Below, piece by piece: positions 6,127 through 25,187 of a DNA stretch of 30,422 nt. The stretch comes from a virus. Taxonomy: Duplodnaviria > Caudoviricetes. Numbering within the stretch: position 1 is the stretch's first letter; each line of letters begins with the position of its first letter. The notes beneath the pieces are model-generated. The model searched no databases and was not told the origin of the DNA. It saw only the letters and a list, made by a program, of their open reading frames with translations. The position numbers were made by a program, and so were the translations under genes. The stretch is taken from positions 1-30,422 of the IMG/VR virus record IMGVR_UViG_3300032236_001020; one strand, given 5' to 3'.

Positions 6127-6773
6127 AAAAGATGGCATTGTTTATGCATCATCCTGAGTGTTCTGAGGATTGTGCTTATGCAATGGTGCATGCATTATCG
6201 TCGCAGTATCAGATAAGAATATTTACTGAGGATGAATTAGATGATCCTGAATTTTTTACTAATCTTGATGTTGTTGCTTTTCCTGGCGGTATTGGCGATA
6301 GCGACACATATGCTAATTTCTTCACTAGAAGAAGAGCGAACAGAATATCCGACTTTCTATCAGCAGGTGGTTGCTACCTTGGTATTTGCATGGGTGCTTA
6401 TTGGGCTGGAAAGCGTTATTTCGATCTACTTGATTCTGTAGAACCAGTTCAATATATTAAAAGAGCTGGTGCTGATGTAAGAAGAAGCTACGGAACAGTA
6501 GCTTCAGTCACATGGAAGAACCAAAAAGAGGATATGTATTTTTATGATGGTTGTGCGTTAGTTGGAGATGAAGAACAATTCAAAACAATTGCTCGCTACG
6601 CCAACGGAGATCCGATGGCAATCATACAAGGTAGGATTGGTTTGATTGGATGTCATCCTGAAGCAGCAGAGTATTGGTTTAAAGAACCATGGCAATACAT
6701 ATATAAATACTACAATGGTGGAAGACACCACGAATTACTACTGAATTTTGTAAATGAACTTACGGAGAAATAA
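6123..6773 (+). CDS. Class I glutamine amidotransferase-like / BPL-N domain protein
   Basis: FPGG, GICMGAY nucleophile elbow, HPE. Confidence 0.8.
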   Translation: MKKMALFMHHPECSEDCAYAMVHALSSQYQIRIFTEDELDDPEFFTNLDVVAFPGGIGDSDTYANFFTRRRANRISDFLSAGGCYLGICMGAYWAGKRYFDLLDSVEPVQYIKRAGADVRRSYGTVASVTWKNQKEDMYFYDGCALVGDEEQFKTIARYANGDPMAIIQGRIGLIGCHPEAAEYWFKEPWQYIYKYYNGGRHHELLLNFVNELTEK

Positions 6774-17145: not shown

Positions 17146-17192
17146 GTTGTTGATTTTATGAGGAAAAAATAACCCTACCGAGCGTAGGGTTT
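17143..17192. promoter_or_regulatory. IHF-consensus site (17143-17155) plus 23-bp palindromic box copy 2 (17170-17192)
   Basis: TAAGTTGTTGATT; TAACCCTAC CGAGC GTAGGGTTT (could also act as a terminator). Confidence 0.65.
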
Positions 17193-17205
17193 TTGCATTT
17201 AGTGC

Positions 17206-17234
17206 TTGCCTTTAATTGCAAGATCTCGTATAAT
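17206..17234 (+). promoter_or_regulatory. Early sigma70-like promoter; near-duplicate of the 7152 promoter and leader
   Basis: TTGCCT-N17-TATAAT then TATTATATGGAATCGAGAAAAGGA. Confidence 0.85.
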
Positions 17235-19221: not shown

Positions 19222-19432
19222 TGAAAAATTGATGGAGTTGTCGGTTACAATCGATAATACACTGCTTGCCCTTTGTGACAAGTATAAAACAAATGCATTA
19301 ACAATGAGTGCTGTTGTTATGGCTCGAATGATGTTGCTTTGCGATTCAGTTGGCTCTAGTGATGACATGCGTAAACTGTGCCACGAAGTATCTGGCGCAC
19401 CGATGCCAAAACCTATGGAGCAATTTCATTGA
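19214..19432 (+). CDS. Hypothetical protein
   Basis: GTG start, SD GGAG. Confidence 0.7.
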   Translation: MDDEKLMELSVTIDNTLLALCDKYKTNALTMSAVVMARMMLLCDSVGSSDDMRKLCHEVSGAPMPKPMEQFH

Positions 19433-19863
19433 AACAGAAGTGGATTGATGCATTTATGGATACAGCTGAGAGGTTTGCTCAGTTGTCTTCAGCGAAACGA
19501 TTGAGGGTTGGTGCGGTAGTCGTAAAGGACAATCGTATCATCTCAATTGGATACAATGGTATGCCAGCAGGATGGACTAACGAATGTGAACATGTTATCC
19601 AGCTGTCAGACGATACAGTTGAATTGAAAACGAAAGATGAGGTAATACATGCTGAAGCGAATGCTATACTTAAGTTGGCTCGTGATGGGGAGAGCGGAAA
19701 TGGCAGTAGTCTATTTTGCACTCATGCTCCTTGCGTTCAGTGCGCCAAACTTATCTATGGTGCTGGAATCAACAGCATGTACTATCGTGAGTCCTATCGT
19801 GACAATGACGGAATTGAGTTTTTGCAGAAATGCGAAATAAATGTTCAGAAAGTTGCAAAATAG
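19429..19863 (+). CDS. dCMP deaminase
   Basis: VGAVVV, GYNG, HAEANA, PCVQC; TTG start after GGAG. Confidence 0.92.
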   Translation: MKQKWIDAFMDTAERFAQLSSAKRLRVGAVVVKDNRIISIGYNGMPAGWTNECEHVIQLSDDTVELKTKDEVIHAEANAILKLARDGESGNGSSLFCTHAPCVQCAKLIYGAGINSMYYRESYRDNDGIEFLQKCEINVQKVAK

Positions 19864-19864
19864 T

Positions 19865-19904
19865 TTGCCTTTTAATCAAAAGTGTGGTAGAATAATACTA
19901 AATA
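19865..19904 (+). promoter_or_regulatory. Tandem early (TTGCCT-N17-TAGAAT, 19865-19893) and late-type (ACTAAATA, 19897-19904) promoters of the tRNA-array leader
   Basis: Motif match; 5' hairpin GATACGAAC/GTTCGTGTC at 19907-19930. Confidence 0.7.
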
Positions 19905-19954
19905 GAGATACGAACCAAAGTGTTCGTGTCCAAAATCAAAGGAAGAAATTTCAA

Positions 19955-20077
19955 ATGTTACAGTTGTGTATATCCAGAACGATGCAAAAGCATTTACCAC
20001 TCTCAAGTGGCTGGTCAAACACACGCCCATCATTTGGATATGCGATTGAGAATGATACTGGGGGTTTTGGAAAGTAA
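19955..20077 (+). CDS. Putative attenuator leader peptide, 40 aa (MLQLCISRTMQKHLPLSSGWSNTRPSFGYAIENDTGGFGK)
   Basis: SD AAAGGA; 32 distinct codons; last codons overlap the antiterminator strand. Confidence 0.65.
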   Translation: MLQLCISRTMQKHLPLSSGWSNTRPSFGYAIENDTGGFGK

Positions 20078-20137
20078 AGTATAGACTACATAGTTTATTT
20101 CCCAAAACCCTCTACCTGAAAAGTTAGAGGGTTTTTT
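20060..20137 (+). terminator. Antiterminator/terminator pair upstream of the tRNA array
   Basis: GGGGGTTTTGG (20060-20070) pairs with CCAAAACCCTC (20102-20112); terminator CCCTCTA/TAGAGGG + T6 (20108-20137). Confidence 0.8.
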
Positions 20138-20147
20138 GTTTTAGGGC

Positions 20148-20196
20148 TTGCCTTAAATTCGGATTGAAGGTAGAATTCAATCCTGTTCTTTAAAAA
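20148..20196 (+). promoter_or_regulatory. Sigma70-like promoter (20148-20176), overlapping hairpin (20161-20183) and boxA-like motif (20184-20196)
   Basis: TTGCCT-N17-TAGAAT; GGATTGAA/TTCAATCC; TGTTCTTTAAAAA. Confidence 0.65.
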
Positions 20197-20212: not shown

Positions 20213-20286
20213 TCGGGAATGGTGTAATGGTAACACAACACACTTTGACTGTGTCGTTCTAGGTTCGAGTCCTAGTTCCCGTGCCA
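20213..20286 (+). tRNA. tRNA-Gln(TTG)
   Basis: Cloverleaf, loop CT-TTG-AC, GGTTCGA, CCA. Confidence 0.92.
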
Positions 20287-20502
20287 AACTAAAATACATT
20301 GGGTAGCCAATTCCAGTAGGCACTCTAGGAGTTTAGATCATTCGACGGAATGGTGCTCGCTAGTTTGCACGAAACCTTGAGATCATATCAGGAGGACGCT
20401 GGGTAAAGTTGGATCGTAATGTGTTTGATGACCAATCGCTAGACGATAGCGTGGTTAACCCTGAGTGGGTGTCGTCAATCGTCCCAATGTATTTTAGTTT
20501 GG
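20284..20502 (+). ncRNA. Candidate structured ncRNA A (~220 nt) closed by a perfect 20-bp inverted repeat
   Basis: CCAAACTAAAATACATTGGG (20284-20303) / CCCAATGTATTTTAGTTTGG (20483-20502). Confidence 0.65.
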
Positions 20503-20507
20503 TATAT

Positions 20508-20583
20508 GCTCGGTTCGTCTATCGGCTAGGACACTGCCCTTTCACGGCAGGAAGGAGGGGTTCGATTCCCCCACCGAGTACCA
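20508..20583 (+). tRNA. tRNA-Glu(TTC)
   Basis: Cloverleaf, CT-TTC-AC, CCA. Confidence 0.93.
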
Positions 20584-20591
20584 GAATTTTT

Positions 20592-20665
20592 GGGAGTAAA
20601 ACTTTAAAGTGAAGTAACTGGCTTTTAACCAGTAAAACTAGGAGCATTACCTAGTACTCCTACCA
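20592..20665 (+). tRNA. tRNA-Lys(TTT), non-canonical T-loop
   Basis: ACTGG CT-TTT-AA CCAGT; T-loop AGCATTA; CCA. Confidence 0.8.
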
Positions 20666-20671
20666 AACAAT

Positions 20672-20747
20672 GGTGTCTTTAGTGTAGAGGTTCGCACCCG
20701 ACTCTGTGAAAGTCGTAGTATGGGATCGTTCCCCATAAGACACCCCA
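20672..20747 (+). tRNA. tRNA-His(GTG)
   Basis: 8-bp acceptor stem with G-1:C73; CT-GTG-AA. Confidence 0.9.
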
Positions 20748-20749
20748 AT

Positions 20750-20824
20750 GGTAACATAGCACAATGGCAGTGCACTTCCTTCATACGGAATAGGTTGCTG
20801 GTTCAAGTCCAGCTGTTACCACCA
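20750..20824 (+). tRNA. tRNA with CAT anticodon (elongator Met or Ile2)
   Basis: TT-CAT-AC loop; CCA. Confidence 0.85.
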
Positions 20825-20834
20825 AGAGTTAAAT

Positions 20835-20923
20835 GGAAGTGTGTGCTGAATTGGTTGAAGGCAACGGACTGTAAATCCGCCACATAAGAAACGCTGTAGG
20901 TTCGAATCCTACCACTTCCACCA
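20835..20923 (+). tRNA. tRNA-Tyr(GTA)
   Basis: CT-GTA-AA; long variable region; CCA. Confidence 0.92.
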
Positions 20924-20928
20924 GATAT

Positions 20929-21004
20929 GTCGCTTTAGCAAATGTGGTCATTGCAGCAGTTTGAAGCACTGATGAACAAGGTTCGATCCCTTGAGGCGAC
21001 ACCA
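20929..21004 (+). tRNA. tRNA-Phe(GAA)
   Basis: TT-GAA-GC loop; CCA. Confidence 0.87.
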
Positions 21005-21009
21005 AATAT

Positions 21010-21085
21010 GCCCGATTAGTAAAATGGATTATTACGCTGTGCTACGAACGCAGAGGTAGAGGTTCGATTCCTTTATTGGGTGCCA
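21010..21085 (+). tRNA. tRNA-Arg(ACG)
   Basis: CT-ACG-AA; CCA. Confidence 0.9.
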
Positions 21086-21091
21086 GATTAT

Positions 21092-21166
21092 AGCCAATTA
21101 GCTCAGTGGTAGAGCATCGTCTTGATAAGGCGAGGGTCGATGGATCGTTCCCATCATTGGCTACCA
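21092..21166 (+). tRNA. tRNA-Ile(GAT)
   Basis: TT-GAT-AA; CCA. Confidence 0.9.
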
Positions 21167-21172
21167 GATTAT

Positions 21173-21250
21173 GCCCATGTGGACAAATTGGTAAAGTCGC
21201 TTCTCTCAAAAGGAAAAGGTATCTCTGTTCGAATCAGAGCATGGGCACCA
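21173..21250 (+). tRNA. tRNA-Leu(CAA), short variable region
   Basis: CT-CAA-AA; CCA. Confidence 0.87.
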
Positions 21251-21254
21251 ATAT

Positions 21255-21331
21255 GCGGATGTGATGGAATTGGTATACATGTTAGTCTTAGAAACTAAAT
21301 CCTGCGAGTTCGAGTCTCGCCATCCGTACCA
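21255..21331 (+). tRNA. tRNA-Leu(TAG), short variable region
   Basis: CT-TAG-AA; CCA. Confidence 0.9.
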
Positions 21332-21332
21332 T

Positions 21333-21407
21333 ACTCGGTTAGCTCAGCGGTAGAGCAGTGCCCTTACAAGGCGAAGGTCGTAGGTTCAATCCCTACACCG
21401 AGTACCA
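21333..21407 (+). tRNA. tRNA-Val(TAC)
   Basis: CT-TAC-AA; CCA. Confidence 0.92.
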
Positions 21408-21408
21408 G

Positions 21409-21437
21409 TTGTCTTATAAGAATAAGTATAGTATAAT
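21409..21437 (+). promoter_or_regulatory. Internal sigma70-like promoter in the tRNA array
   Basis: TTGTCT-N17-TATAAT. Confidence 0.75.
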
Positions 21438-21446
21438 AGTTTTTGT

Positions 21447-21521
21447 GCAGGATTAATTCAGTGGTAGAATGTCTCGTTGCCAACGAGAATGTCATCGGTT
21501 CGAACCCGATATCCTGCTCCA
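21447..21521 (+). tRNA. tRNA-Gly(GCC)
   Basis: TT-GCC-AA; U73; CCA. Confidence 0.93.
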
Positions 21522-21527
21522 AGTTAT

Positions 21528-21603
21528 GCAGCATTAGCTCAATCGGGAGAGCACAGCACTGTCACTGCTGAGGTAAGGGGATCGAAACCCCTATGCTGCG
21601 CCA
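21528..21603 (+). tRNA. tRNA-Asp(GTC)
   Basis: CT-GTC-AC; G73; CCA. Confidence 0.92.
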
Positions 21604-21607
21604 AGTT

Positions 21608-21681
21608 TTGTGGTAAGGAAAGTAAAAGGAGCATGGGCAAGTCATTTGCTAGAGAATGACCAGATACCGCACCTGCCACAA
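21608..21681 (+). ncRNA. Candidate tRNA-sized structured RNA, not a cloverleaf
   Basis: Closing stem TTGTGGTA/TGCCACAA; inner hairpin GTCATT/AATGAC. Confidence 0.4.
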
Positions 21682-21692
21682 TTTTAGTTTAT

Positions 21693-21768
21693 TCCGAAGT
21701 AGCACAGAGGTAGTTGCACCTGACTGTTAATCAGGGTGTCGTAGGTTCGATCCCTACCTTCGGAGCCA
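21693..21768 (+). tRNA. tRNA-Asn(GTT)
   Basis: CT-GTT-AA; CCA. Confidence 0.93.
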
Positions 21769-21777
21769 TAGTTTTAT

Positions 21778-21854
<77 letters not shown>

Positions 21855-21860
21855 AGTTTC

Positions 21861-21948
21861 GGACGATATAGTATAACACGACGATATCTAAATGTTATGC
21901 GAATGTGAAATGAGTAGGGCACTGATCCTGACCTGCTATCGTCCACCA
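21861..21948 (+). ncRNA. tRNA-like RNA with acceptor stem and ACCA end but no canonical anticodon or T loop
   Basis: GGACGATA/TATCGTCC-ACCA; GTAGG/CCTGC stem in T-arm position. Confidence 0.55.
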
Positions 21949-21953
21949 TTTTT

Positions 21954-22028
21954 GGGTTGTTAGTTTAGTTGGGAAAACACTTGCCTTGCACGCAGGAGTG
22001 GGGAGTTCGAATCTCCCACGATCCACCA
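21954..22028 (+). tRNA. tRNA-Ala(TGC)
   Basis: G3:U70 identity pair; CT-TGC-AC; CCA. Confidence 0.92.
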
Positions 22029-22033
22029 AATTT

Positions 22034-22107
22034 GCTCTTTTAGTATATTGGTATTATGTCGGTTTTGTAGTCCGAAGAAGGTAGTTCAATTCTATCAAGG
22101 AGCACCA
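22034..22107 (+). tRNA. tRNA-Thr(TGT)
   Basis: TT-TGT-AG; CCA. Confidence 0.85.
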
Positions 22108-22113
22108 AGTTAT

Positions 22114-22188
22114 ATCTCAGTAGTGTTAACGGCAGCACGACAGTCTCCAAAACTGTGAGTCGGGGTTCAAATCCCTGCTGGGATGCCA
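22114..22188 (+). tRNA. tRNA-Trp(CCA)
   Basis: CT-CCA-AA; CCA. Confidence 0.92.
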
Positions 22189-22194
22189 AGTTAT

Positions 22195-22284
22195 GGAAGT
22201 GTGGCAGAGTCTGGTTTATTGCACCTGTCTTGAAAACAGACGAGTAGAAATGCTCCGTGAGTTCGAATCTCACCGCTTCCGCCA
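22195..22284 (+). tRNA. tRNA-Ser(TGA)
   Basis: CT-TGA-AA; long variable arm; CCA. Confidence 0.93.
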
Positions 22285-22302
22285 ATTAACGAAAGGGTTG
22301 TT

Positions 22303-22470
22303 ATGTCACAGAAAGATACGATAGAAAAAGCGTATGGTAATATACCAAAAGAGATCAGCAACCCATTCACTATTTTTGATTGGCTTCCTGAGTTCAGAGG
22401 TATACGATACTACATCGCAAAGATTAGGAGAGTGGGCAGGATGGTAATGCAGCGGATTGCTAATCCGTAG
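22303..22470 (+). CDS. Small ORF (55 aa) running into tRNA-Ser(GCT)
   Basis: GAAAGGG upstream; MSQKDTIEKAYGNIPKEI... Confidence 0.5.
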   Translation: MSQKDTIEKAYGNIPKEISNPFTIFDWLPEFRGIRYYIAKIRRVGRMVMQRIANP

Positions 22471-22516
22471 ATTCAGGAAACTGGATCACAGGGTTCGACT
22501 CCCTGATTCTCCGCCA
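22427..22516 (+). tRNA. tRNA-Ser(GCT)
   Basis: TT-GCT-AA; long variable arm; CCA. Confidence 0.93.
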
Positions 22517-22658
22517 ATTTGTCAACAACAAATTCAGGTTTCTGTTTTTTAGGAAATTGTAATTTGAATTCTTTTATACAGCTATAACTTCCACGAGAGA
22601 CATATTGCCCTCGTGTCGAGTCGAAAAGTACTTGAATGGCTTCTTCTGCTGTAATCAT
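22473..22658 (-). CDS. Possible antisense small gene (61 aa, MITAEEAIQVLFDSTRG...)
   Basis: Fills a non-tRNA gap; minus-strand CATAAATA at 22664-22671 just upstream of the ATG. Confidence 0.4.
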   Translation of the reverse strand: MITAEEAIQVLFDSTRGQYVSRGSYSCIKEFKLQFPKKQKPEFVVDKLAENQGVEPCDPVS

Positions 22659-22670
22659 TAAAATATTTAT

Positions 22671-22745
22671 GTCCCCATCGTATAATGGATAATACAATTC
22701 TCTTCTAAAGAATGAATGTGGGTTCAATTCCTGCTGGGGATACCA
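22671..22745 (+). tRNA. tRNA-Arg(TCT)
   Basis: CT-TCT-AA; CCA. Confidence 0.92.
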
Positions 22746-22748
22746 AAT

Positions 22749-22825
22749 GCGGATGTGATGGAATTGGTATACATATCAGACTTAAAATCTGAGTTCTGAG
22801 GGTTCGAGTCCCTCCATCCGTACCA
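22749..22825 (+). tRNA. tRNA-Leu(TAA), short variable region
   Basis: CT-TAA-AA; first 26 nt identical to Leu(TAG). Confidence 0.92.
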
Positions 22826-22827
22826 AT

Positions 22828-22902
22828 GGGCTTATAGCATAAAGGTAGTGCCGTCAACTCATAATTGATAAGGAGATGGTTCGAATCCATCTGAGCCCAC
22901 CA
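22828..22902 (+). tRNA. tRNA with CAT anticodon (Ile2 or elongator Met)
   Basis: CT-CAT-AA; CCA. Confidence 0.88.
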
Positions 22903-22938
22903 ATGTTAAATAGGAGATATCTTTAAAAGGAGAATGAG

Positions 22939-23493
22939 ATGAATGTCCTAGCACTAGATTCTTCAGGTCTACCAAGAGCATGGGTAAACTTTGAAGACGC
23001 AATCTGCTATCATGCCAAAGATCAAGTTGTTTGGTCATTGGGAGATACCATTGCCACATTCCGTGGTGGTATACAGAAAGATGGCACACAATCAGTGTTG
23101 GAGACAAAGTCCATTATTGCTGTTCGTGGTAATGTAACACTGGAAAAGATTGGTAGAGTTACACTAACAAACAGAACATTATTCGGTAGAGACAGACATA
23201 TGTGTGCTTACTGCGGAGATGTTCATGGCAATGCTTCATTATCCAGAGATCATATCCATCCTGTATCAAAAGGTGGACAAAACATTTGGACCAATGTTGT
23301 TACTTGCTGCTTAAAGTGTAACGCAAAGAAAGGCAGCAAGACTCTTGAAAAGGCAAATATGGAATTGTTATATATCCCATACGAACCAAATCACTACGAG
23401 AATATGATTCTGTTGAACAGAAATATTCTTGCAGATCAAATGGAGTATTTGCTTGCTGGTGTTCCAAAGAACAGCAGAGTAAGATTAATGTAG
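22939..23493 (+). CDS. HNH endonuclease
   Basis: CAYCG, DHIHPVSKGG, NVVTCCLKCNAKKG. Confidence 0.92.
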   Translation: MNVLALDSSGLPRAWVNFEDAICYHAKDQVVWSLGDTIATFRGGIQKDGTQSVLETKSIIAVRGNVTLEKIGRVTLTNRTLFGRDRHMCAYCGDVHGNASLSRDHIHPVSKGGQNIWTNVVTCCLKCNAKKGSKTLEKANMELLYIPYEPNHYENMILLNRNILADQMEYLLAGVPKNSRVRLM

Positions 23494-23564
23494 GTGTGAC
23501 TGAATGGTAAGGTAGCGGTTTGCAAGTCCGATGTTCACAGGTTCGATTCCTGTCACCTACTCCA
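23490..23564 (+). tRNA. tRNA-Cys(GCA)
   Basis: TT-GCA-AG; U73; CCA; overlaps HNH stop. Confidence 0.88.
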
Positions 23565-23566
23565 AT

Positions 23567-23595
23567 TTGCCTTGCAAGTTTTTATTGGGTATAAT
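23567..23595 (+). promoter_or_regulatory. Sigma70-like promoter directly upstream of ncRNA B
   Basis: TTGCCT-N17-TATAAT. Confidence 0.8.
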
Positions 23596-23599
23596 TACT

Positions 23600-23798
23600 A
23601 TATTGTTTATCGTTGAGGGTGTGAGCAAAAGAAAAGGGAATCCCAACTGTTAGGGAAGATAATCGCCAGTCAAAACAGCGTCCATTATTCGGAGAGAATC
23701 TAGACTCCCAATCTAGATTGAAATGCTTGAAGATCTGGTGGCAGGAATTTAAAGCTGCCAACAAAACACATAACAGTACTCTCAACGATAAACAATAT
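23600..23798 (+). ncRNA. Candidate structured ncRNA B (~200 nt) closed by a 21-bp stem
   Basis: ATATTGTTTATCGTTGAGGGT / ACTCTCAACGATAAACAATAT (one G-U); inner hairpins AATCTAGA/TCTAGATT and TGGCAG/CTGCCA. Confidence 0.7.
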
Positions 23799-23872
23799 GC
23801 GGGATTAGTTTAATGGTAAAACTAGAGATTTCCAATCTTTCGTCATCAGTTCGATTCTGATATCCCGCTCCA
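23799..23872 (+). tRNA. tRNA-Gly(TCC)
   Basis: TT-TCC-AA; U73; CCA. Confidence 0.92.
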
Positions 23873-24020
23873 TTAGTTTAGTGTTATCAAGGTATCGTCA
23901 TAGGACGCTATGACTATGCGGGTCCAACTGTGCGAGGAACGGATCCTGATATAACTGCTATTCGCTTGTCAGTGCTAGCTACATTCTTGACAAATGGGCA
24001 CGATAGCACTAAACTAATGG
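23870..24020 (+). ncRNA. Candidate structured ncRNA C (~150 nt) closed by a 19-bp stem
   Basis: CCATTAGTTTAGTGTTATC / GATAGCACTAAACTAATGG (one G-U); inner stems GTCATAG/CTATGAC, GGGTCC/GGATCC, TTGTCA/TGACAA. Confidence 0.7.
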
Positions 24021-24021
24021 A

Positions 24022-24029
24022 ACTAAATA
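24022..24029 (+). promoter_or_regulatory. Candidate late promoter ACTAAATA
   Basis: Same octamer as at 19897. Confidence 0.45.
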
Positions 24030-24037
24030 CATTACCT

Positions 24038-24113
24038 GCCCATTTAGCTCAGTTGGTAGAGCATCTCATTAGTAATGAGGAGGTCTGCGGTTCGAATCCG
24101 TAAATGGGCACCA
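24038..24113 (+). tRNA. tRNA-Thr(AGT), A34 anticodon
   Basis: CTCA TT-AGT-AA TGAG; canonical D and T arms; CCA. Confidence 0.9.
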
Positions 24114-24125
24114 ACGAATAATATT

Positions 24126-24824
24126 ATGACTGAACCTAAAATCTTTATTGCAACACCGATGTATGGTGGACAGTGTTACGGCACTTACGCTAACTCGATG
24201 ATTACTCTTGTGAATGTTCTCGCCAGAAAGAACTGGCTTGGCACATGGTCATTTTTGTATAATGAATCTTTGATCCAACGAGGTAGAAATACTTTAGTCC
24301 ATCAATTCCTACAAACAGACTATACGCATTTATTGTTCATCGATTCAGACATGGGTTTCTTTGCCCATGATGTAATGTCAATGATAGAGCAGGATGTAGG
24401 TATCGTTAGTGCATTGTGTCCAAAGAAGAAACTAGATTGGAATTTGATCGCCAGTGCTGCAATTGCTGGAGTACCACCAGACCAACTAATGACGGCAACA
24501 GCCGAGTGGGCATATTTACCACTACAAGAGATTGGTATACTAGATACAAGCGAACAAAAGATAGTAGAGATAGAAGCAGCAGGTACTGGACTAATCTTAA
24601 TTAAGAGAGAAGTGTTCGAACAGGTAGATGTCCCTTACTTTACAGCAACAAACGGAGAGAACATTAAGATGTTCTTTGAAACCAAATTGGATGAAGACAG
24701 TGGGCTAAATAACTATCTGTCTGAAGATTATAATTTCTGTAAGATGTATAGAAACAAAGGTGGCAAAGTATATCTTGCCCCATGGACAAAAGTAAAACAT
24801 ACAGGTACTTTAACATTTGGTTAG
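24126..24824 (+). CDS. GT-A fold glycosyltransferase-like protein
   Basis: IATPMYGG, ESLIQRGRN, LFIDSD, GTGLILIKREVF, SEDYNFC; ATG 24126 (the track start lies inside the tRNA). Confidence 0.8.
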   Translation: MTEPKIFIATPMYGGQCYGTYANSMITLVNVLARKNWLGTWSFLYNESLIQRGRNTLVHQFLQTDYTHLLFIDSDMGFFAHDVMSMIEQDVGIVSALCPKKKLDWNLIASAAIAGVPPDQLMTATAEWAYLPLQEIGILDTSEQKIVEIEAAGTGLILIKREVFEQVDVPYFTATNGENIKMFFETKLDEDSGLNNYLSEDYNFCKMYRNKGGKVYLAPWTKVKHTGTLTFG

Positions 24825-24832
24825 GAGAAAAG

Positions 24833-25105
24833 GTGACAATACCACAAAGACAAAAAGAATACGGTAGAGGTAAGAAAAGAGAAAAACGATTCGATGGCAG
24901 TTCGGTAATCGTTCAAGATGGTAGATTTGAACAGGCACTGCGCCAGTTCAAACGAAAGATAGACGAGAATGGTCTATTGCAAGAATTAAGAGAACGACAA
25001 GAGTATGTCAAGCCAACAACCAAAAGGAAGATGGCAAAGGGTAGGGCAAAAGCCAGATGGCGTAAGTTTATTCGCCAACAGCAATTGCCAGAGAAATTAT
25101 ATTAA
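24833..25105 (+). CDS. rpsU: 30S ribosomal protein bS21 with N-terminal extension
   Basis: FEQALRQFKRKIDENGLLQELRERQEYVKPTTKRK; GTG start after AGGAG. Confidence 0.9.
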   Translation: MTIPQRQKEYGRGKKREKRFDGSSVIVQDGRFEQALRQFKRKIDENGLLQELRERQEYVKPTTKRKMAKGRAKARWRKFIRQQQLPEKLY

Positions 25106-25109
25106 CAAT

Positions 25110-25187
25110 CGCAGGGTATGGAAGTGGTCTATCCGTCTGGTCTCATAAGCCATGAAATCGTTGGTTCGAATCCAACCCCTGCAACCA
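25110..25187 (+). tRNA. Initiator-like tRNA-fMet(CAT)
   Basis: C1:A72 mismatch; CT-CAT-AA; AACCA end. Confidence 0.85.

Follow-up and report, generated by a model that had tools for sequence, protein, structure and literature searches.

Among leader-peptide attenuators, those of amino-acid operons (trpL, hisL, thrL, and ilvL) are the classical examples, and arrest peptides of the SecM, TnaC, and ErmCL type carry fixed residues at a fixed spacing from the stall site. According to a theoretical treatment of attenuation, the mechanism requires synchrony; when a single regulatory codon stands among many others, sensitivity is low, and sensitivities converge only when the regulatory codons become very slow (PMC1183508). 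A sensor of broader scope is the upstream ORF (uORF) of whiB7 (wblC) in mycobacteria, in which stalling leads to antitermination and the sensed set follows the coding sequence; as reported in that work, whiB7 is activated by the knock-down of tRNAs and of synthetases, and removal of the single Trp codon from the uORF weakens the Trp response (PMC10274678). By analogy with the latter case, one codon may suffice for sensing.

As for tRNA arrays, whether those of phages serve codon compensation or the replacement of tRNAs cut by host defence is a long-open question (PMC10264068). In Anabaena, impaired translation induces the trn operon, a long tRNA array, 100- to 1000-fold, and this induction aids survival; in the text of that paper, “attenuat” and “leader” occur 0 times (PMC8421152), and a protein repressor, TrcR, is named in another (PMC10272220).

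In the present work we analyzed a leader ORF preceding a tRNA array in a 30,422-nt stretch of viral DNA (hereinafter, the window). The original prediction, that is, an attenuator whose leader contains codons for nearly all amino acids and lies ahead of tRNA genes, is supported by the comparative evidence reported below. The parts listed in it all lie at the coordinates given, and none of its refuting outcomes that were checked was observed.

The leader, its helices, and its surroundings in the window

The window, a whole contig of 30.4 kb, derives from an uncultured T4-like phage: the genes recognized through PHROGs include those for DNA ligase, exonuclease, dCMP deaminase, HNH nuclease, ribosomal protein S21, and thioredoxin. 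The searches retrieved no close cultured phage relative, the best identity of the DNA ligase being 40%, and DNA searches matched tRNAs only. The features of the locus are as follows:

19429..19863, + strand: dCMP deaminase gene (PHROG 174, E 7.8e-53), the final gene of the upstream operon
19865..19893, + strand: P1, sigma-70-type promoter TTGCCT-17-TAGAAT with a TG motif (consensus match)
19899..19904, + strand: TAAATA (from the sequence), which we take to resemble a T4-type late promoter
19907..19930, + strand: 5' hairpin of 9 bp (19900-19960 folds at -12.1 kcal/mol, z -3.4)
19939..19943, + strand: SD-like AAGGA, 11 nt upstream of the ATG
19955..20077, + strand: leader ORF (40 codons, 32 distinct, 19 amino-acid types, no Val)
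19958..20056, + strand: putative sensing zone, codons 2-34, ending at the sole Asp (limits from sole-copy counts and folding)
19997..20010, + strand: possible pause hairpin of 5 bp (z -0.98 alone)
20026..20062, + strand: possible 1:2 protector helix, predicted in the window, with no conservation above chance
20060..20112, + strand: antiterminator helix, in which 20060-70 pairs with 20102-12 and a further pairing of 20072-78 with 20094-100 prolongs the stem
20081..20098, + strand: inner stem, which folds when the ORF end is removed (as with a ribosome sitting there)
20104..20137, + strand: intrinsic terminator CCCTCTA/TAGAGGG with T6 (-16.3 kcal/mol, z -3.0)
20148..20176, + strand: P2, sigma-70-type promoter past the terminator (consensus match), a predicted bypass in the window genome
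20184..20200, + strand: boxA-like element (from the sequence) ahead of the first tRNA, presumably akin to rrn boxA
20213..25187, + strand: 28 tRNA genes, together covering all 20 amino acids, with the main block at 20213-22902
21409 and 23567, + strand: promoters inside the array (consensus matches)
23490, 23799, 24038, and 25110, + strand: outlying tRNA genes for Cys, Gly, Thr, and a Met-type tRNA, respectively

The number of tRNA genes that had been proposed downstream of the leader is correct, 26 being found by ARAGORN and two by Rfam (at 20592 and 23490); the anticodons of the Lys and Cys tRNAs were taken directly from the sequence. No terminator was seen between the dCMP deaminase gene and the leader, and the same gene is the upstream neighbor in 39 out of 62 relatives with sufficient upstream DNA. 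The array also embeds two protein genes: one for an HNH endonuclease (22939-23493), which runs up to where tRNA-Cys begins, and one for ribosomal protein S21 (24782-25105), directly preceding the last tRNA. Moreover, two structured inserts, both without a match in Rfam, were observed. The former, of about 215 nt (20285-20505), lies between tRNA-Gln and tRNA-Glu, has a long closing terminal stem, and folds at -68.6 kcal/mol (20290-20505); its homologues occur at 15 of 115 loci, at varying positions within the arrays, and RNA contigs of great depth from other organisms match its segment 20368-20428 (depth 4155 in X6 and 242 in X7), so that it is possibly an abundant unnamed non-coding RNA. The latter (23598-23790), located between the 23567 promoter and tRNA-Gly, has a long terminal stem and folds at -48.7 kcal/mol.

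The composition of the leader ORF was exactly as had been described (40 codons, Val missing). At least 19 amino-acid types occur in 5.9% (P 0.059) of 5224 40-codon windows from the phage's own genes, and at least 32 distinct codons in 0.25% of the same windows; in random DNA with an equal base composition the number of distinct codons is 28.9 ± 2.5, about 1 SD below the 32 observed. Taken alone, the codon diversity of the window is marginal and only suggestive; it is because of the homologue family that we consider the content of the leader non-random. Of the 26 anticodon types in the window array, 24 have a codon in the putative sensing zone (null 15.9 ± 2.4, P 0.0004), while Val and CTA codons are missing even though the array carries both tRNAs. 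The leader peptide matched no PHROGs family, and a tblastn search against cultured phages gave a best E of 8.

Folding confirmed the proposed 11-pair helix between 20060-70 and 20102-12 (one G-U pair, -23.9 kcal/mol, z -4.4). Antiterminator and terminator both need 20104-12 and are thus mutually exclusive; a promoter/terminator scan of the window did not include the 20104..20137 terminator among its calls. The inner stem at 20081-98 appeared in folding, as anticipated, once the ORF end was removed. In 37 aligned sequences, 95.9% of the antiterminator positions are paired, with 14 double changes, and 93.5% of those of the terminator, with 24 double changes, neither value being reached by any of 500 shuffles; the helix cores are, however, fixed by the patterns used for searching, and a single pair accounts for 13 of the 14 double changes in the antiterminator. 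With this limit on the cores, the pairing of both helices is kept in the relatives. The suggested pause hairpin at 19997-20010 is weak: in the window it is not significant (z -0.98), and the relatives give it modest support (83% of cells paired, 4/500 shuffles as high; mean z -0.96 when compared with synonymously recoded sequences). No pause site in the leader is convincing. The idea of a conserved 1:2 protector helix was discarded, its mean z relative to synonymous recoding being 0.02 in 36 representatives.

The two modes of folding both place a clear switch at the ORF end and disagree for codons 2-20. At equilibrium, the terminator is favored in the window (0.71-0.99) for stalls at codons 2-20, because there the 1:2 helix can form, and in 15 homologues it has a mean of 0.4-0.75 for stalls anywhere upstream of the boundary, close to 0.5 for the later ones. 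When folding takes place before the 3' arm of the terminator exists, the antiterminator is at 0.92 or above at every position up to the boundary. Sensing in the first half of the leader would hence need a kinetically persistent antiterminator, since equilibrium favors the terminator there. T-box, PyrR, and other riboswitches were rejected, only tRNA reaching an Rfam gathering score (the best PyrR score was 25.8 bits, E 0.28, against a cut-off of 54). The RNA comparison covered seven of eight runs that share 5% of the words with the window; the RNA contigs touching the leader are short, come from relatives, and have low depth, with no start, stop, or read-through visible in them.

Content, frame, and codon choice in related leaders

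Relatives were retrieved by means of DNA patterns, whose sets overlap and are not independent. The terminator pattern gave at least 119 viral loci. Among the matches listed, a homologous ORF is present in 91 of 120 sequences (window included), corresponding to 69 distinct homologues of 32-45 codons; 55 of these 69, again among the matches listed, hold all 20 amino-acid types and the remaining 14 hold 19, as compared with all 20 types in 0.36% of 40-codon gene windows. In an overlapping set (n = 88), 20, 19, and 18 types are found in 72, 15, and 1 leaders, respectively. Several residues occur in exactly one copy: Asp and Trp in 69/69 homologues, His and Tyr in 68/69, and Cys in 65/69; Ala is single in 41/69. 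A second pattern, based on uORF motifs, was too loose (7/120 loci passed the filter, among the matches listed); out of six such loci inspected, five are true family members, all five with a terminator.

This completeness exceeds what the composition of the alignment columns would give. Among 31 representatives, 77% hold all 20 types versus 12% after column shuffling; none of 2000 column shuffles reached the observed mean, and chimeras gave 0.36-0.45. The conservation of a codon-diverse uORF had been put forward as a check, and the uORF is indeed conserved in frame, with an amino-acid diversity far above that of gene windows and of column shuffles. Furthermore, the rare residues relocate: in the 31 representatives, Cys lies before the LP motif, after it, on both sides, or on neither in 16, 11, 0, and 4 cases, Gln in 16, 13, 1, and 1, and Tyr in 19, 11, 1, and 0. 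On a tRNA-gene tree of 32 leaves, the states of Cys, Gln, and Tyr change 11, 8, and 7 times, respectively, counts that recombination could inflate; the homologues also share ancestry. A reciprocal swap is seen between the window (Cys5/Asn22) and its sisters L657 and L639 (Asn5/Cys22); the window branch also carries Thr where these two have Val.

The frame is kept at 92 of 93 clean-anchor loci over nine lengths, while a non-coding spacer splits 50/37/10, and the other two frames of the leader ORFs contain on average 2.9 and 4.0 stops. The same ATG is preceded, in 61 of 86 relatives, by a -35/-10 pair whose -10 box lies 6-7 nt upstream, and these are predicted to be leaderless; 10 of 86 have an SD-type start like that of the window. 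The conservation of the frame, together with the two modes of start, is good indirect evidence that the leader is translated. A loose version of TAAATA lies within 130 nt of the ATG in 79/86 relatives, a count for which no null was computed; as a speculation, in the leaderless relatives the ORF on a transcript begun here would lack an SD, which could force read-through late in infection.

Residue identity is lower in the leader than in the neighboring dCMP deaminase (0.52 vs. 0.71), whereas synonymous identity is higher (0.72 vs. 0.49, the leader being higher in 208 of 231 pairs, drawn from 22 of 36 representatives). Judging from these alignments, selection acts on the content of the leader rather than on the peptide sequence. 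The leader favors codons that the tRNAs of the array read by wobble (TTT 36:0, TAT 34:3, GAT 34:2, ATT 36:1, GAG 33:7, GCG 31:13, and CAG 35:7), with Lys and Cys codons not conforming. The codons AGG, CGG, CCC, and TTC occur in 0/69 homologues, and so the sensing of “almost any codon” does not extend to them; the anticodons CCT, CCG, and GGG, dedicated to the first three, are absent from 22/22 arrays. TCC and CTC are common in leaders, though their readers are missing from most arrays. Over the 22 arrays, the sensing zone has codons for a mean of 92% of the anticodon types. Some odd anticodons were also observed in these arrays: Thr-AGT in 17/22, including the window (24038-24113), Ser-AGA in eight, Ile-TAT in nine, and a CTA (amber-reading) tRNA in four (L611, L635, L643, and L651).

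Predicted sensing boundary, proposed mechanism, and rival explanations

The last codons of the leader are expected to be blind, because a stalled ribosome frees the antiterminator only while 20060-70 is uncovered. The distribution of sole-copy residues has such a limit: relative to the GGT codon, they are found at -5, -4, and -3 in 22, 19, and 34 of 36 representatives, and at each of the positions from -2 to +3 in 0-1 of 36. The Phe of GFGK is backed by a second, upstream Phe in 35/36, at 13 different offsets, and the amino-acid set is complete three codons ahead of the antiterminator core. If the edge of the ribosome is placed 8 nt past the start of the A site, a value chosen after the data were seen, the antiterminator goes from 0.99 at -3 to 0.00 at -2. 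Edges of 7-9 nt put the fold switch between -3 and -2; an edge of 12 nt puts it earlier and leaves Asp34 outside the sensed range. An edge of about 8-10 nt agrees with the ribosomal helicase site. The idea that almost any codon is sensed would hold as far as most amino-acid types are concerned, with codons 35-40 predicted to be blind and Val absent in the window.

On this basis we consider it probable that the leader is a ribosome-mediated transcription attenuator sensing the shortage of almost any tRNA that the array can supply. Host RNA polymerase would start at P1 or enter from upstream, with a ribosome trailing on the ORF. When decoding is fast, the ribosome at codons 35-40 would cover 20060-70 and the terminator would form; a ribosome waiting at any codon up to Asp34 would instead let the antiterminator form first, sequestering the terminator CCC and permitting read-through into the tRNAs, and the new tRNAs would relieve the stall and close the feedback loop. 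The response should be greater to deep tRNA loss (cleavage, degradation, severe uncharging, or a missing anticodon modification) than to mild starvation; we infer such a trigger because there is one codon per type and, in theory, sparse codons are insensitive until they become very slow.

The promoters that had been proposed at 19865, 20148, 21409, and 23567 are present as consensus matches only, and such matches are not enriched (30 per 10 kb vs. 24.6 ± 3.8 in shuffles). Among the matches listed, the P2 position has a score of at least 9/12 in 48 of 83 loci (window included), some of them with two promoters after the terminator, and lacks a promoter in 35/83; in 33/83 the spacer to tRNA-Gln is at most 56 nt and holds a boxA-like element and no sigma-70 promoter. 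A loose boxA-like match is found in 80/83 loci, and in the relatives without P2 the element follows a small hairpin directly 3' of the terminator; rrn-type antitermination could be recruited in this way to the read-through transcript. Since P2 lies past the terminator, the switch would add to the tRNA output in the window genome without being its sole gate; in about 40% of the loci, which lack P2, no route to the first tRNAs other than read-through is evident from the sequences. A module of a hairpin and a sigma-70 promoter recurs elsewhere, at 17171-17234 in the window; in relatives it lies either downstream of the terminator or in the interval that separates TAAATA from the leader promoter.

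The bypass gives rise to one rival explanation, which we regard as unlikely: the switch would be real and yet minor for the tRNA supply in window-like genomes, with P2 and the internal promoters driving the array, and the attenuator trimming output, ending the upstream operon, or acting on P2 by read-through. P2 with the boxA-like element 11 nt past the terminator, the 48/83 loci with a promoter there, and the loss of the Val codon in the window lineage speak for it; it does not account for the 33/83 short-spacer loci devoid of a promoter, and selection on content appears to persist in P2-bearing loci, because the leaders there keep 19-20 types. It is similarly unlikely that the leader is a general sensor of translation stress or coupling, like toiL or whiB7 in the antibiotic response, or an arrest peptide, its completeness being secondary. 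The fold would be switched by whatever slows the ribosome, the leader has conserved motifs (LP, W, R, AIE, and GFGK), and toiL senses five antibiotic classes by stalls at different positions (PMC12121999). A timer or an arrest peptide, on the other hand, needs none of the completeness, which unrelated peptides share equally, and would leave unexplained the low residue identity (0.52) alongside the high synonymous identity and the rare residues that relocate yet stay single.

A third explanation, which we consider very improbable, is that the operon simply closes with a common type of small gene and a common type of terminator, the overlap and the content being due to chance and shared ancestry. 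The window-only statistics are marginal, terminator-then-promoter modules recur in the phage (17171-17234), and the homologues are related, all of which would agree with it. The matches listed for a three-strand pattern, conversely, argue against it: the ORF ends in the helix in 52 of 53 viral matches with a tRNA downstream, a short ORF does so in 8 of 69 viral matches without one, and among the bacterial matches listed this holds for 15 of 123, none with more than 17 types. No tRNA was found within 500 nt of these 123 bacterial matches, which come from 4 of 64 parts of the bacterial genomes. The start codon in the viral comparison was picked by a score favoring diversity, and the homologue, tRNA-Gln, and spacer sets were obtained without that score. 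Chance would also leave unexplained the column shuffles, the compensating moves, and the -3/-2 boundary. Overall, the attenuator reading concerns a real feature with strong comparative support and a putative mechanism.

Leaders beyond the family and comparison with known systems

When tRNA-Gln was the only anchor, at least 109 distinct loci were retrieved, 60 of which have enough upstream DNA; among the matches listed, a terminator and a short ORF are present in 15/60, and 45/60 are without such a leader. Eleven of these 15 array heads have 19-20 types, and five of the 11 lie outside the family. Out of 14 divergent leaders, 11 show no likeness to the family profile (E > 0.04), and several have different three-strand sequences with identical wiring. 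The same wiring with biased content was observed in the viral loci L121/L163, L153, L173, and L078, each before the matching first tRNA: Asn-rich leaders before tRNA-Asn, Thr/Ser/Ile-rich before tRNA-Thr, Cys-Cys before tRNA-Cys, and Ser/Pro before tRNA-Pro.

Stretches of 12-20 kb from eight cultured phages were also searched. None holds an all-20 leader, and in two of the eight, CcrColossus and Atu_ph07, a leader lies before tRNAs; no leader was found before a tRNA in those of RsoM2USA, PX29, JSF10, Mendera, S13, and Morian, where stretches of 12-20 kb may miss the array heads. The leaders are located as follows:

JX100810, L720:13491-13650 and 6607-6726: the two CcrColossus leaders, both ORFs unannotated in the record
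NC_042013, L721:2163-2350: the Atu_ph07 gp469 leader

The 31-codon ORF of CcrColossus ends in a -43 kcal/mol helix that captures the 5' arm of the terminator. In its codons 1-16, 87% encode Tyr, Phe, Val, Ile, Gln, Asn, and Arg, that is, the following tRNA block, of which the Gln, Asn, and Arg tRNAs were recognized only in extended DNA and the tRNA-Tyr and tRNA-Phe are unannotated in JX100810 (null 33%, 0/2436; joint P 0.004 for the whole ORF); Met and Thr occur in the leader without a tRNA in the block. The second ORF, of 39 codons, consists for 76% of Pro, Lys, Leu, His, Ala, and Ser and lies before those tRNAs (0/2137); it is followed by a C-rich tract with no U-tail terminator. In Atu_ph07 gp469, 82% of the first 29 codons specify one of the 11 amino acids served by the 13 tRNAs that follow (null 54%, 0/1174; joint P 0.013 for the whole ORF). 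The codon cut-offs of CcrColossus and Atu_ph07 follow the position of the helix, although they were chosen by the analyst. “Attenuat” and “leader” occur 0 times in the available part of the Atu_ph07 paper. A further Atu_ph07 region (L721:1479-1605), which precedes gp470 and lies upstream of the tRNA region, holds a 16-codon ORF and a terminator for which a competing helix is predicted.

As in the window, the leader codons of CcrColossus and Atu_ph07 mirror the downstream tRNAs, and two of these three leaders show pairing between the end of the ORF and an arm of the terminator. Unlike the window, they have 6-11 amino acids with repeats and one leader per block; these, too, are predicted attenuators. 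A wider reading, which we advance tentatively and with some doubt, is that a compact alarm may have arisen in phages several times independently. With a single codon for each tRNA type, it would respond whenever anticodon nucleases of the anti-phage defence destroy any of the host tRNAs, or when an anticodon modification is lost, and would turn on replacement tRNAs. The all-20 leaders and the block-matched ones would then be two forms of one unrecognized rule, a tRNA operon leader written in the codons of its own tRNAs.

If the attenuator reading is true, the array would be inducible by stalled decoding, so that phage tRNAs answer a shortage; the codon list of the leader would tell which shortages selection cares about, and attenuation would have direct product feedback, the sensed molecule being the transcribed one. 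The element is about 200 nt long with host-type promoters, so a plain reporter suffices for testing, and it might find use as a broad biosensor for tRNA damage. As block-matched leaders occur in two cultured phages, an infection test is already feasible.

A search of the open-access literature, conducted mostly on titles and the beginnings of abstracts and leaving supplements and subscription journals outside its scope, found no leader-peptide attenuation of tRNA genes. The original prediction had gone further, knowing of no description of a pan-codon sensor; this was too strong, because broad sensing has been tested for the uORF of whiB7, which in M. smegmatis encodes 19 amino acids.

With the leaders of the trp, his, thr, and ilv operons, the window shares a short ORF, exclusive 2:3 and 3:4 helices, and a U tract, a ribosome at the ORF end favoring termination; those attenuators repeat the codons of one to three amino acids, form a 1:2 pause hairpin, and precede biosynthetic enzymes (PMC1183508). 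The leaders of the window family, unlike those of the trp/his/thr type, have roughly one copy of each amino acid and no conserved 1:2 helix; the downstream genes are tRNAs, and the product is the sensed molecule. Compared with arrest peptides, the leader has motifs, but the spacing from R to GGT is variable, taking nine lengths, and codons are more conserved than residues. Like the toiL uORF of E. coli topAI-yjhQ, one uORF would answer stalls at several positions; toiL differs in acting by translation control and Rho-dependent termination, in sensing antibiotics, and in having a toxin-antitoxin pair as its target (PMC12121999). The Anabaena trn operon differs in being on a plasmid and not in a phage, with an induction that takes many hours (PMC8421152).

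A close case is whiB7, in which a uORF with nearly all amino acids likewise lies ahead of an antiterminator/terminator; its target is a transcription factor, and its uORF is Ala-enriched and misses several amino acids in M. tuberculosis (PMC10274678). The window leader would work like the whiB7/wblC attenuators and is not one of them, belonging to a T4-like phage and not to Actinobacteria; its targets, unlike that of whiB7, are phage tRNA genes, and single-copy completeness is conserved within about 35 codons. The attenuator class and broad sensing are thus known, and what is new is the tRNA genes as target together with the compact, one-of-each design.
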